This document shows positions 43,455 to 57,124 of a DNA stretch of 64,000 nucleotides, in pieces. Source of the DNA: Chitinophagaceae bacterium (lineage in GTDB: Bacteria; Bacteroidota; Bacteroidia; Chitinophagales; Chitinophagaceae). A program made the translations under genes and the position numbers. The stretch's first letter is position 1; the number at the start of each line of letters is the position of its first letter. Location of the stretch: contig JAKFER010000047.1 in the NCBI GenBank assembly GCA_036675565.1, positions 105,756 through 169,755 of the forward strand, given 5' to 3'. The notes under the pieces were generated by a model, which saw only the letters and a program-made list of their open reading frames with translations, had not been told where the DNA came from and did not search any database.

Positions 43455-43613
43455 AGCAACTAACCAGGTTTAAAAAACAAAGCCTTAATTGCAAGGTAAC
43501 AACTTAGCAAATAAAATGTTTAAAAGGTTTCTGTTGTTTTCAATTGCTTTAAATAAATCCCAACGCTAATGAAATGATTTGAAATTTAGCCTTTCCCTGC
43601 CTGAACTTTATCG

Positions 43614-43621
43614 TAAATTTG
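43614..43621 (+). promoter_or_regulatory. Candidate TAnnTTTG -7 box for paaA
   Basis: TAAATTTG lies 21 nt upstream of the ATG at 43642. Confidence 0.3.
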
Positions 43622-43641
43622 ATACCTGTAAATTGCGTCAT

Positions 43642-44577
43642 ATGGAACAAGAATTATTCGATCAGAAACTTGATAAAGAGATCCGCATTGAGCCGCGAGA
43701 CTGGATGCCGGAAAAATATCGTCAGACTTTGATACGCCAGGTAAGCCAGCATGCACATAGTGAAATAGTTGGAATGTTACCAGAGGGCAACTGGATCAGC
43801 CGGGCTCCTTCTTTAAAAAGAAAACAAATATTAATAGCGAAAGTGCAGGATGAAGCTGGTCATGGGCTCTACTTATATTCCGCTGCTGAAACGCTGGGTA
43901 TCAGTCGTGATGAGATGATTGATCAATTACATTCTGGGAAGGCAAAATATTCATCCATTTTTAATTATCCTGCAACTACCTGGGCGGATATGGGAGCGAT
44001 AGGCTGGTTGGTTGATGGTGCTGCCATTATGAACCAGGTTCCTCTTTGCCGTGCATCTTACGGACCATATAGCCGTGCAATGATCCGCATTTGTAAAGAA
44101 GAAAGTTTTCACCAGCGCCAGGGTTTTGAAATATTATTAATGTTATGCCAGGGCAGTCCTGAACAAAAAGCAATGGCGCAGGATGCATTCAATAGATGGT
44201 GGTGGCCAAGCCTGATGATGTTTGGTCCGCACGATAGTGATTCCCCCCATACCGAACAAAGTATGCAATGGAAGATCAAGCGTTTCAGCAACGATGAATT
44301 AAGACAACGATTTGTAGATATGATCGCCGAACAGGCAAACGTTCTTGGACTCACAGTTCCGGATCCCGATCTGAAATGGAACGAAGAGCGAAAGCATTAT
44401 GATTTTGGTGAAATTAACTGGGACGAATTCTGGAACGTGGTAAAAGGTAATGGTCCCTGTAATAAGGAACGTCTTACTGCCCGTCGTAATGCACATGAAG
44501 AAGGTGCATGGGTGCGGGAAGCTGCAGTAGCATATGCTGAAAAAAGAGCCATGCGGCAAAAACAGAACGCAGCGTGA
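43642..44577 (+). CDS. paaA: 1,2-phenylacetyl-CoA epoxidase catalytic subunit PaaA
   Basis: Colinear with E. coli PaaA from [61 protein letters not shown] at 43642; the track start at 43579 is a TTG extension. Confidence 0.95.
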
Positions 44578-44719
44578 GTAGTTGGATGGTTGAATGGTTG
44601 TTAAGTTTGAATGTCCAAGTTGGAATTAGGGTATTGGGAATTTGGAATTGGGCTTACAATTAGTCAAATGGTTAATGTATTAAACTAAGCACTAAACTCT
44701 AAACCCTAAACAAATTAAA
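44578..44719 (+). repeat. Composite intergenic repeat, copy A (GGTTGA-rich block, tandem TGGAATT repeats, CTAAAC-type A/C-rich block) filling the paaA-paaB spacer
   Basis: GTAGTTGGATGGTTGAATGGTTGTTAAGTTT...GTTGGAATTAGGGTATTGGGAATTTGGAATTGGG...AATTAGT...GTATTAAACTAAGCACTAAACTCTAAACCCTAAAC shares its block order with 56955-57124. Confidence 0.6.
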
Positions 44720-44833
44720 ATGAGGAATCTTTTAAAAAAATATTATTACGGTGATTATGATGCCATAGAAGGTGGTGGTTTACCAAATGATTCAGAGAAA
44801 AAAGTTGATAAAAACGCTGTTTCTTTAACGCCA

Positions 44834-45127
44834 ATGGTAAGTGGTTCAACGGCCTGGCCACTATGGGAAGTTTTTATTCGCAGCAAACAAGGCCTGGATC
44901 ATAAACATGCAGGTAGTTTGCATGCTGCCGATGCTGCAATGGCTATTGAAAATGCACGGGATGTGTACACACGCCGTCAGGAAGGTGTAAGTATCTGGGT
45001 GGTTGAAAGCAAACATATCCACGCCACCAATCCTGATGATGCCGAAAGTTTTTATGAGCCCGCAAACGACAAGGTTTATCGTCATCCAACATTTTATGAT
45101 TTACCTGATGAAGTGAAGCATATGTAA
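44834..45127 (+). CDS. paaB: 1,2-phenylacetyl-CoA epoxidase subunit PaaB
   Basis: MVSGSTAWPLWEVFIRSKQGL.HKHAGSLHAAD...VYRHPTFY aligns from residue 1 of E. coli PaaB. The ORF is open back to the ATG at 44720 (a 38-aa extension of uncertain reality). Confidence 0.9.
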   Translation: MVSGSTAWPLWEVFIRSKQGLDHKHAGSLHAADAAMAIENARDVYTRRQEGVSIWVVESKHIHATNPDDAESFYEPANDKVYRHPTFYDLPDEVKHM

Positions 45128-45133
45128 CTGATG

Positions 45134-45168
45134 TTGGAATTGGGGATTTGGAATTTGGAATTGGGTGG
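45134..45168 (+). repeat. Left TGGAATT tandem-repeat arm
   Basis: GTTGGAATTGGGGATTTGGAATTTGGAATTGGGTGG: four units with a 7-8-nt period. Confidence 0.7.
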
Positions 45169-45192
45169 TGAAATTCACAAAAACTTTAGGCG

Positions 45193-45209
45193 TTTGAATA
45201 GTATTCAAA
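45193..45209. promoter_or_regulatory. Perfect 8+1+8 palindrome upstream of the four-helix-bundle gene
   Basis: TTTGAATA-G-TATTCAAA, 16 nt upstream of the ATG at 45225. Confidence 0.3.
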
Positions 45210-45224
45210 TTAATTAATTAAAAA

Positions 45225-45619
45225 ATGCCCGCATCAAATTCATATAAAGGTTTTAAGGATTTAGACTGCTGGAAAAAAGGCAGAGAATTAAGAAATATAA
45301 TTTCAGCGTTGGTGAAAAAATTCCCACCTGAAGAAAAGTATCAACTGGTGTCACAAATGATTCGATCCCGTCGTTCTGTTACAAACAATATGGCCGAAGG
45401 TTATGGAAGGTTTACGTATACTGATACCCGGCATTTTTTTATCCAGGCTAGGGGTTCAGTTACTGAAATAATCGATCATTTGGTAATTGCGCTTGATGAA
45501 AATATATCTCAAAAGAAGATTTTTCCGCAATAGAGATTATGTGTGAATCCGTATTTAAATTAATAAATGGCTATATCAATTATTTAGATAAACAAAATAA
45601 AGAATCATATCCTCAATAG
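45225..45619 (+). pseudogene. Four-helix-bundle protein gene (23S rRNA intervening-sequence protein / DGR Avd family, PF05635), disrupted by a 1-nt frameshift
   Basis: Frame 0 gives ...FKDLDCWKKGRELRNII..KFPPEEKYQLVSQMIRS..S.TNNMAEGYGRF...ARGS..E and stops at 45533. The family-typical C-terminus (KEDFSAIEIMCESVFKLINGYINYLDKQ) continues in another frame to 45619. One extra A in the A4 run at 45511-45514 restores a ~130-aa ORF. Confidence 0.75.
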
Positions 45620-45644
45620 ATTTTTTAAGTTGGTCTTTAAAAAT

Positions 45645-45672
45645 AATTCCTAATTCCCAATCCCAAATTCCT
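45645..45672 (-). repeat. Right TGGAATT tandem-repeat arm (inverted)
   Basis: Plus strand reads AATTCCTAATTCCCAATCCCAAATTCCT; the reverse complement is AGGAATTTGGGATTGGGAATTAGGAATT. It ends 1 nt before the paaC ATG (G45673 intervenes). Confidence 0.7.
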
Positions 45673-45673
45673 G

Positions 45674-46483
45674 ATGCAATCATATCAACTCTTTACCCAC
45701 TCTCTTCACCTCGCCGACAATGCTTTGATCCTTTCCCAGCGAAATAGTGAATGGTGTGGCCATGGACCGGTGCTGGAACAAGACATAGCTATTACCAATA
45801 TTTCACTCGACTTACTGGGACAAGCCAAGAACTTTTACGCCTATGCCGCGGAATTGTACAATGGTTTTTCGGATGATGAAAAAAATGCGGCTGACCATGT
45901 TATTCCAAGGCCATGGAAAAATTATGGAAGAGAGATTAATGAAGATGATCTTGCTTTTTTGCGGGATGAAAATCAATACCTTAATTTTTTAATGCTTGAA
46001 TTGCCCAGAGGAGATTGGGCGTTTACAACTTTGCGTCAATTCCTTTTCAGTGCCTGGCAATTTGATTTGTATACGAATTTGATGAAAAGTCCGGACGCAA
46101 CTATTGCAGCCATTGCAGATAAATCGCTTAAAGAAGTGACTTACCATTTGCGCTGGAGCAGTGAGTGGGTTATTCGTCTGGGTGATGGTACAGATGAAAG
46201 TCATGCCCGTATGCAAAAAGCTGTTGATGATCTTTGGATGTATACCGGGGAAATGTTTGAACCTTTTATGGATCAATCTTTGGTTCTGGGACTCGATTCA
46301 AAAGTTCTGCAGCAGTCCTGGTTCAGCCGCGTAAAAGATATTTTTGACGAAGCTACCCTGAACATGCCTGTTAGTGGATGGATGCAAACAGGTGGAACGA
46401 GTGGCAGGCATACGGAACACCTTGGATATATATTGGCAGAGATGCAATACCTGCAAAGAACTTTTCCAAACGCAACCTGGTAA
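45674..46483 (+). CDS. paaC: 1,2-phenylacetyl-CoA epoxidase structural subunit PaaC
   Basis: LADNALILSQRNSEWCGHGP.LEQDIA..NI.LD..GQA is typical PaaC/PaaI-oxygenase; the gene follows paaB and precedes paaD. Confidence 0.9.
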   Translation: MQSYQLFTHSLHLADNALILSQRNSEWCGHGPVLEQDIAITNISLDLLGQAKNFYAYAAELYNGFSDDEKNAADHVIPRPWKNYGREINEDDLAFLRDENQYLNFLMLELPRGDWAFTTLRQFLFSAWQFDLYTNLMKSPDATIAAIADKSLKEVTYHLRWSSEWVIRLGDGTDESHARMQKAVDDLWMYTGEMFEPFMDQSLVLGLDSKVLQQSWFSRVKDIFDEATLNMPVSGWMQTGGTSGRHTEHLGYILAEMQYLQRTFPNATW

Positions 46484-46491
46484 TTTTTTAA

Positions 46492-47010
46492 ATGAACAAA
46501 ACATCCTTACATACAACTGATCCTGCATTGGTAACACACCAGATCTGGAAGATCCTCGAAGAAGTGAACGATCCGGAAGTGCCTGTATTGTCGGTTATTG
46601 ATTTGGGTATTGTGAGGGATGTTGTTTTTAATGATAACCAATACGAAGTAATTATTACACCTACTTATTCTGGTTGTCCTGCAATGGATGTAATTAATAT
46701 GAATATTCGGCTTAAGTTAATGGAGTATGGAATGAGGGATGTTTTGGTAAAACAGGTTTTATCTCCAGCCTGGACAACAGACTGGATGTCTGAAGCCGGC
46801 AAAGAAAAATTAAAAGCATTTGGTATTGCACCTCCCAATCCGAAGCAACAGGTTTGCAGCACGGCTTTATTTGCTGATGAATCAGTGCAATGTCCGCATT
46901 GCAGCTCTTATAATACAACCCGCATCAGCGAGTTTGGCAGCACGGCCTGTAAATCTCTTTATCGCTGCGAACAATGTAAAGAGCCGTTTGATTATTTTAA
47001 ATGCCATTAA
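46492..47010 (+). CDS. paaD: Phenylacetyl-CoA epoxidase subunit PaaD (PaaJ)
   Basis: DUF59/MIP18-like N-domain (VNDPEVPVLSVIDLGIV...TPTYSGCPA) and a C-terminal Cys4 ribbon (CPHCSS...CEQCKEPF). Confidence 0.9.
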   Translation: MNKTSLHTTDPALVTHQIWKILEEVNDPEVPVLSVIDLGIVRDVVFNDNQYEVIITPTYSGCPAMDVINMNIRLKLMEYGMRDVLVKQVLSPAWTTDWMSEAGKEKLKAFGIAPPNPKQQVCSTALFADESVQCPHCSSYNTTRISEFGSTACKSLYRCEQCKEPFDYFKCH

Positions 47011-56954: not shown

Positions 56955-57124
56955 TTGAAAGGTTGATAAGTTTCTTAGTATTGGAATTTGGAATTAGGAT
57001 ATTTGGAATTAGGCTGGAATTAGTTGATTAGTTGAATGATTATAGGTTGATACGTTCCAGGAATTGGATAAAAATAACTGTATTAAAAACAACTAAACGC
57101 TCAACCCTCACCTCTAAACTGATT
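56955..57124 (+). repeat. Composite intergenic repeat, copy D, filling the cysS to alkA-like spacer
   Basis: TTGAAAGGTTGATAAGTTT...TTGGAATTTGGAATTAGGATATTTGGAATTAGGCTGGAATTAGT...GTATTAAAAACAACTAAACGCTCAACCCTCACCTCTAAAC has the same block order as 44578-44719. Confidence 0.6.

Follow-up and report, generated by a model that had tools for sequence, protein, structure and literature searches.

Results

A small gene bracketed by inverted arms lies between paaB and paaC

The window analysed here, a 64,000-nt stretch of contig JAKFER010000047.1 from a Chitinophagaceae bacterium, contains between the paaB and paaC genes of a paaABCD operon a small gene of the PF05635 four-helix-bundle family (the family of the protein encoded in 23S rRNA intervening sequences and of Avd), and this gene is flanked by inverted repeat arms. 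We are highly confident that the spacer holding it is one copy of a family of cassettes, each made up of arm, gene and arm. We also judge it reasonably probable that this is a decaying copy of a widespread promoterless cassette built like a 23S rRNA intervening sequence, one whose arms would form a stem that is processed by RNase III.

As the original prediction had it, and as the list of open reading frames (ORFs) confirms, 546 nt (45128-45673) separate the paaB stop codon from the paaC start codon, and this spacer holds a single PF05635/TIGR02436 ORF. The paaB gene (44720-45127; PF06243, E = 2.4e-43, and in the ORF list), which is the upstream cistron, ends with a TAA at 45125-45127, 8 nt 5′ of the core of the 5′ arm, and the 3′ arm ends 2 nt 5′ of the ATG of the downstream cistron paaC (45674-46483; PF05138, E = 1.3e-85); these features, and all others of the window given below, are on the plus strand. 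The 5′ arm (45134-45165) is a G/T-rich, C-free array of the heptamer GGAATTN, and the 3′ arm (45645-45671) is a C/A-rich, G-free array of NAATTCC. In the best inverted-repeat register, positions 45136-45162 face 45645-45671 and are complementary at 24 of 27 nt (89%); the 16-nt register put forward originally is complementary at 15 positions as claimed but is not the best one, and the left-flank string that was quoted from 45134 has 36 letters and begins at 45133. From arm start to arm end the window copy measures 538 nt.

The arm helix consists of four 6-bp blocks with single mismatches between them and has a duplex energy of -30.5 kcal/mol; with 1000 pieces of 29 nt drawn at random from the window, the 5′ arm gave -10.2 +/- 4.0 kcal/mol (best, -23.1). 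The arms are paired in both the minimum-energy and the centroid fold of 45120-45690, and across contexts of 570, 950 and 1380 nt the 5′ arm pairs with the 3′ arm with a mean probability of 0.65-0.69, the probability exceeding 0.5 for 23-25 of its 35 bases; the arm-arm stem dominates the predicted ensemble, as had been anticipated. Allowing up to 3 mismatches, we counted 11 occurrences of the motif GGAATTTGGAATTGGG in the window, compared with 2.0 +/- 1.4 in shuffles. We rejected the 7-nt periodic spacing of mismatches in the window stem as a candidate protein-binding signature, since across cassettes mismatch spacing is near geometric.

Scans revealed neither an intrinsic terminator nor an excess of promoter-like sites between paaA and paaC, and neither the 59-nt loop-side leader of the small ORF (45166-45224) nor the spacer as a whole contains a Bacteroidetes -7 motif, a sigma-70-like excess or a terminator. 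With no promoter or terminator in the spacer, the cassette most likely sits within the paa transcript.

The cassette is directly abutted by a 6-nt direct repeat, CTGATG, the left copy of which is at 45128-45133 and the right copy of which, at 45671-45676, includes the paaC ATG. Removing the cassette together with one copy would leave TAA-CTG-ATG, like the short junctions of some relatives. The pair is absent from the related locus L006 (loci compared with the window are numbered with the prefix L), and it is probably due to chance.

The window copy of the gene has decayed

The small gene occupies 45225-45619. As read, its ORF (45225-45533, 102 aa) matches PF05635 with E = 1.5e-23 (83.5 bits; cut-off, 33.8), TIGR02436 ('four helix bundle protein') with E = 3.6e-26 (91.5 bits; cut-off, 24) and the PDB entry 2GSC with E = 1.7e-13, which bears out the family assignment made from the sequence alone. 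In a correction to the original prediction, the ORF proved not to be intact: relative to its closest relative it carries a 1-nt deletion near 45504, after ...LDEN (45503), the frame stops at 45533, and the last 37 codons are in another frame that runs to a stop at 45617-45619. The window copy thus has no intact frame over all four helices. Repairing the frame gives a protein of 131 aa that covers the whole PF05635 profile (1-106 of 106; E = 5.9e-29, 100.9 bits). The identical 102-aa ORF is called in three other metagenome assemblies (L001-L003), and the frame break is present in their DNA too, indicating that the deletion is real and no read error. The window copy of the small gene is a pseudogene, old and decaying.

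Inverted arms accompany the gene family

Scanning metagenome contigs added 80 loci whose homologues are 43-62% identical. Of 101 family genes, which come from Chitinophagaceae genomes and metagenomes, 90 had flanks of at least 100 nt upstream and 120 nt downstream and were scored by local alignment of the upstream flank to the reverse complement of the downstream flank, with 20 shuffles each. (RNAduplex on flanks of 110-130 nt was discarded; it returned long, loose duplexes that ran into coding sequence, and real flanks could not be told from shuffled ones.) For 76 of the 90 genes the inverted arms outscored all 20 shuffles, with a median score of 36 compared with 17 for shuffles, a median arm length of 33 nt and a complementarity of 85%. 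Upstream arms aligned to the downstream arm of another locus gave a mean score of 20 (95th percentile, 32), and the flanks of 250 non-family genes from the same loci gave a median of 17 and a 95th percentile of 22, a value that 87% of the family genes exceed (Mann-Whitney p = 1.5e-31). Scores of 30 or more were reached by 15 of 454 small non-family genes, and many of the arms concerned each are, or contain, a palindrome. The original prediction had expected other PF05635 genes to be bracketed by inverted TGGAATT arrays; the bracketing is general among them but the TGGAATT unit is not, the repeat unit varying with the lineage and each arm matching its own partner.

Clustered at 90% protein identity, the cassettes that have both arms and an intact gene form 71 groups, and they occupy at least 42 genomic contexts. 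In 72 of the 76 cassettes the 5′ arm is G-rich and C-poor (694 G, 104 C) and the 3′ arm is the reverse (92 G, 726 C); because this G-rich-first handedness reads alike on both strands, it is a property of the hairpin and is uninformative on gene orientation. An internal period of 7-9 nt is clear in about half of the longer arms.

Arms also bracket distant members of the family, which we examined apart from these 90 genes. Contigs from a viral collection have them at two of three distant copies, L166 (G+C-rich) and L170, which has (GGCAGAA)n, and cyanobacterial plasmids have them at three of four genes: a Calothrix gene with (GGGTGTA)n arms that is co-directional between an integrase gene and a hypothetical gene, a Nostoc gene with (GGGAACA)n arms that is co-directional between a TraM-domain gene and a hypothetical gene, and a Geminocystis gene with (GGGAAAA)n arms that is co-directional between a parA-like ATPase gene and parB. 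The fourth, in Pseudanabaena, has tandem arrays but no inverted repeat above shuffles. This gene (L173; Pseudanabaena galeata plasmid, NZ_CP112875.1, 46268-46627) stands between cas6 and cas4 amid long (AAAGCTA)n and (AAAGCCA)n arrays, and such a placement may be the reason for the family's listing among candidate cas genes. At L165 (3774-4133), a divergent four-helix-bundle gene missed by the profile, with arms of the opposite handedness (C-rich first), adjoins a standard cassette.

It is very improbable that the complementarity of the arms is a chance by-product of common low-complexity intergenic repeats. Solo GGAATT arrays in two other spacers of the window, which fold no better than shuffles, speak for such an explanation, but it is contradicted by all three controls (own partner versus other loci, shuffles, and the flanks of non-family genes), by pairing that has been kept through changes on both sides of the helix (described below), and by the energy of the window stem, which the 5′ arm never reached in 1000 pairings with random pieces of the window.

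Arms and gene behave as one unit

Among cassettes in non-homologous contexts, arm similarity is 0.22-0.27 when the proteins are less than 60% identical and 0.52 when they are at least 70% identical. An alignment of five cassettes (A2), two of them at the paaB-paaC junction (L087 and L088) and three in other contexts (L090, L091 and L093), shows a 5′ arm, an ORF and a 3′ arm common to all five, with ORF nucleotide identity of 72-77% in the measured pairs, and flanking sequence that cannot be aligned. RNAalifold pairs the A2 arms into 23 bp; 91% of the cells are standard pairs, compared with 16-56% when the partner is slid by 1-3 columns, and five pairs have changed on both sides, a number reached by 7 of 500 shuffles. 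These alignments show that the arms belong to the cassette and not to the target site, and since arm type follows protein clade and homology ends at the arms, arms and ORF are one formerly mobile unit of ~500 nt. Its occurrence in unrelated sites concerns the related A2 cassettes and not the window copy, whose only close relative, at L006, shares its site.

Across the cassettes the arm-to-arm span has a median of 508 nt (interquartile range 475-546), with a median of 3 nt between the upstream stop codon and the 5′ arm and of 8 nt between the 3′ arm and the start codon that follows; it is tight intercistronic junctions that the cassettes replace. Where the neighbours are co-directional, 56 cassettes are co-oriented with them and 5 are antisense (p = 5.6e-12). 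This co-orientation, together with the lack of room for a promoter, suggests that cassette expression depends on host transcription. Every measurable pair of genes has a dN/dS of 0.03-0.06: over the long term purifying selection maintains the protein, which must be of use to something, even as individual copies decay.

A mobile cassette with terminal inverted repeats had been the alternative offered by the original prediction, and it is the part of it that the data support best, the unit recurring in unrelated contexts with homology that ends at the arms. One form of that alternative would have the arms act as DNA: they would be the terminal inverted repeats of a non-autonomous transposable cassette, acted on by a recombinase in trans or by the encoded protein, and an RNA stem would be a by-product. 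The sharp ends of homology around an arm-ORF-arm unit common to unrelated contexts are in keeping with this, as are the tracking of protein clade by arm type and the presence of at least three protein clades at the paaB-paaC junction, interleaved with copies from other sites. No signal of target-site duplication accompanies the unit, however: among 76 cassettes the longest common flank string averages 3.25 nt, compared with 3.46 nt in cross-locus controls. Nor are the terminal nucleotides conserved across clades, the arms being of low complexity and variable in unit and length. No transposase is recognisable in the cassette, whose sole ORF is the four-helix-bundle gene (a trans-acting enzyme was not searched for genome-wide), and 92% co-orientation with host transcription is unexpected for a DNA transposon. 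Synonymous sites are saturated in all cross-context pairs, so that no recent movement is visible. Two further points that agree with arms acting as DNA, the indifference of the arms to the orientation of their neighbours and the pattern of their mismatches, are taken up below; all told, we think this explanation somewhat unlikely.

The paaB-paaC junction in related genomes

We compared 80 genome loci with a paaB homologue, nearly all of them from Chitinophagaceae and related Bacteroidota. In most the paaB-paaC junction is empty, as the prediction of an insertion implied, with a gap of 0 to ~180 nt that is often TAA plus a few bases followed by ATG. A PF05635-family gene is found in this gap at L006 (84% identical to that of the window), L014, L032, L049, L061 and L076, in the paaA-paaB gap at L009, L017 and L080, and elsewhere downstream of paa genes at L010, L020, L026, L043 and L083. 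These genes lie on the paa strand without exception, and every one has a G/T-rich array upstream and an array complementary to it downstream, with a repeat unit that varies by copy (GGAATTN, GGTAATT, TTGATTN, TTGATAA, AAAGTAN or ATTATTA). Remnants of the gene were detected in the short paaB-paaC spacers of L024 (nhmmer, E = 5e-12) and L031 (E = 1.6e-9) and spotted by eye in those of L030 and L035. The presence of the gene at L006, together with these decayed remnants, argues that the window copy is not a recent insertion. The at least three protein clades that occupy the junction are interleaved with cassettes from other sites, and either the junction has been hit repeatedly or it is the source from which cassettes spread.

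These comparisons bear on the possibility that the small gene is an old resident, with a hairpin that determines how strongly the small gene or paaC is expressed (one way would be to mask the initiation region of paaC until translation of paaB has reached the stop), with no mobility and no role for RNase III. Several features of the locus fit: L006 also has the copy, whose identity to relatives runs parallel to that of PaaC (84/89, 64/63 and 56/55%), the stop and start codons abut the arms, and the window and L006 match exactly over 39 nt that span most of the 3′ arm and the start of paaC. G is moreover depleted in the leaders of these genomes (14.9% compared with 22.5%), consistent with a G-free 3′ arm. 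Set against this are the occurrence of the cassette in several phyla and its many contexts, the gap of only a few to some tens of nt between paaB and paaC in most relatives, and the state of the gene, which is broken by stops or frameshifts in L014, L017, L026 and L061 as well as in the window and is garbled mid-gene in L010, where there looks to be a compensated frameshift pair. In addition, synonymous divergence between the window gene (45225-45619) and that of L006 (4502-4882) is 1.44, ~2.5-fold that of paaB (0.57) and paaC (0.58); codon constraint may be weaker here, or a related cassette may have replaced the original one. A resident gene with a regulatory hairpin is, on balance, quite improbable.

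The junction holds other inserts in some relatives and seems permissive. At L013 (2042-2540) there is an ORF of ~150 codons that looks like an acetyltransferase, and at L062 (4364-6172) the insert is 1.8 kb. At each of two loci, L102 and L134, the paa operon has two four-helix-bundle genes: the first precedes paaB and is truncated where the contig ends, and the second belongs to a complete cassette between paaB and paaC. A different repeat, two GC-rich units ~70-100 nt apart of which at least one is a self-hairpin (e.g. CCCTCC-AAAGG-AGGG), is found in the paaB-paaC spacers of L007, L018, L020, L022, L026, L052, L074 and L080; L018 and L074 have a unit of similar kind upstream of paaB as well, and this led to high inverted-repeat scores for paaB in the control set. 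Spacers between paaB and paaC with no ORF consist of tandem 7-nt arrays or tandem-unit hairpins, some with the C/A-rich arm first, at L069 (4367-4555; (CATCATA/CATCCCA)n, 189 nt), L055 (2142-2327), L082 (3125-3221), L066, L083 and L036. At L020 (6590-6745) a complete G/T-rich plus C/A-rich hairpin of TTGATAA type lies directly upstream of the cassette gene, in addition to the downstream arm, and looks like a duplicated or nested arm set. At L006 (3848-4040) the first ~40 nt of paaB occur twice, ~150 nt apart with a GC-rich palindrome between them, either a local duplication or an assembly artefact.

The remainder of the host operon in the window comprises paaA (43579-44577; Pfam PaaA) and paaD (46492-47010; Pfam PaaD), and the closest genome locus is that of a Chitinophagaceae metagenome-assembled genome with a PaaB identity of 88%. 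Rfam gave no match in the window or in ten related loci, nor in the spacer when thresholds were relaxed, and defence-system models gave no match.

A proposed mechanism and its difficulties

Our preferred explanation, that of a decaying cassette of the intervening-sequence type, would work as follows. In the paaABCD transcript the arms would pair into a stem of ~24-27 bp, looping out the insert and bringing the paaB stop and the paaC start side by side again. Stems of such length are RNase III substrates. By analogy with 23S rRNA, the paa stem would be a likely target, and a cut would release the ORF-bearing loop and separate paaAB from paaCD. The cassette protein may bind its own arms, as Avd does retroelement RNA; this is a reasonable guess because binding of structured RNA is seen within the fold family, and it would agree with the way in which arm type and protein clade vary together. 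For a stem that functions in this way and is processed by RNase III, an analogy with rRNA, our confidence stops a little short of calling it probable.

Several points weigh against this explanation. The 571-nt region as a whole is no more stable than shuffles (z = -1.25), only the arm helix standing out. Partnerless arrays of GGAATT-type heptamers occur in the window with no four-helix-bundle gene, at 44617-44652 in the paaA-paaB spacer and at 56975-57052 after the cysS stop. The ORF of L006 is intact and its 5′ arm has drifted (best register, 14/14), whereas the window has a broken ORF and a good stem, indicating that stem and ORF decay independently. Most arm mismatches, read on the sense strand, set A against C, and those compatible with G·U pairing number 95 on the antisense and 45 on the sense strand, counts that are not independent given repeat units and related loci; wobble thus lends no support to a stem in sense RNA over an origin at the level of DNA or of mutation. 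Template switching or gene conversion can keep inverted repeats complementary without selection. Finally, arms are present whatever the orientation of the neighbours, even where there is no downstream gene to translate, and operon rescue therefore cannot be their sole role.

We rejected the idea that the solo GGAATT arrays are themselves decayed cassettes, as nhmmer finds no gene remnant in spacers that fold no better than shuffles. In the relatives L009, L017, L080, L102 and L134, the paaA-paaB spacer does contain a cassette.

Discussion

Intervening sequences of 23S rRNA, and the ORF conserved in them, were recognised decades ago, and to our knowledge there is still no agreement on where they come from or what they do. 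Our analysis places the stem-plus-ORF unit as the normal setting of a very large gene family, mostly in protein-coding operons, co-oriented and at stop/start junctions; seen in this way, the copies in rRNA are an offshoot of a general cassette. It also provides an annotation rule by which such cassettes and their remnants can be recognised, and the cassette may explain orphan intergenic tandem-repeat arrays.

One could go further and suppose that PF05635 genes, whether in Bacteroidota, Cyanobacteriota or further phyla, are all carried by one as yet undescribed kind of promoterless mobile cassette, in which an Avd-like pentamer recognises the arms, as RNA or as DNA, and aids copying into stop/start junctions. 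The rRNA intervening sequences would then be a special case, a reverse transcriptase might be supplied in trans, and orphan heptamer arrays would be footprints, among them the solo GGAATT arrays of the window, the short tandemly repeated repetitive (STRR) sequences of cyanobacteria and the paired sites of Geobacter. We regard this extended reading as speculative and rather unlikely.

Comparison with known systems

The Avd protein of diversity-generating retroelements belongs to the same fold family, a four-helix bundle that assembles into pentamers. In retroelement RNA an Avd pentamer grips an 11-bp stem-loop, and regions upstream and downstream of the template region pair with each other (preprint 10.1101/2023.10.23.563531). 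The window locus itself is no diversity-generating retroelement, a possibility that we ruled out on finding no reverse transcriptase next to the gene, whose neighbours are paaB and paaC, and no direct repeat of template/variable-repeat size in the spacer.

Miniature inverted-repeat elements and non-autonomous transposons resemble the cassette in their shortness, their inverted-repeat ends, their many intergenic sites and the ending of homology at the repeats. The cassette differs from miniature inverted-repeat elements in having a selected protein gene, no target-site duplications, low-complexity lineage-specific arms and a strong orientation bias.

Tandem heptamers between genes have been encountered before. 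The STRR heptamer sequences of heterocystous cyanobacteria were reportedly described by Mazel et al. in 1990. In Geobacter metallireducens, tandem repeats of 7-9 nt that form inverted pairs between the genes of operons, dozens of such pairs in all, have been read as 'global regulator sites' (PMC2700814). Both are intergenic arrays of tandem 7-9-nt units like the cassette arms, in inverted pairs in Geobacter, and the accessible text links neither to a PF05635 gene. Genome papers record family genes amid housekeeping genes and make no comment on them; one such gene, in Flavobacterium columnare, lies between those for guanylate kinase and nicotinate-mononucleotide adenylyltransferase. The original prediction knew of no such cassette in protein-coding operons, and a search of full-text literature that covered few subscription journals likewise returned no description of hairpin-bracketed PF05635 genes outside rRNA.

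The closest likeness is to the ORF-bearing 23S rRNA intervening sequences of Leptospira and Coxiella burnetii, as the original prediction recognised in describing a PF05635 ORF looped out by a long stem that its flanks form. The Coxiella intervening sequence is 428-444 nt long, with a 28-bp terminal stem that RNase III cuts mid-stem and a decaying family ORF (PMC4990558). The protein family (PF05635, 'S23p') is common to both, and the sizes are similar, the 428-444 nt of Coxiella, the 538 nt of the window copy and the family median of 508 nt all lying within roughly 0.4-0.8 kb. In each the ORF sits in the loop of a terminal stem, 28 bp in Coxiella and 27 nt with 24 matches in the window, has no promoter of its own and is prone to decay. 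The two differ in location, in that intervening sequences sit in helix 9, 25 or 45 of 23S rRNA whereas the window cassette sits in a polycistronic mRNA spacer; no rRNA was detected in the window or in ten related loci, and among close homologues we found no copy within 23S rRNA. They appear to differ also in the arms, which in the window and the family are 7-9-nt tandem arrays with the G-rich arm on the 5′ side. Excision by RNase III is established for the rRNA copies and for the mRNA cassettes would follow by analogy. Taken together, the cassette has every structural feature of 23S intervening sequences that was tested except their defining location in rRNA, and what is new is that the intervening-sequence build here extends to operons of mRNA and to the greater part of a very large gene family.

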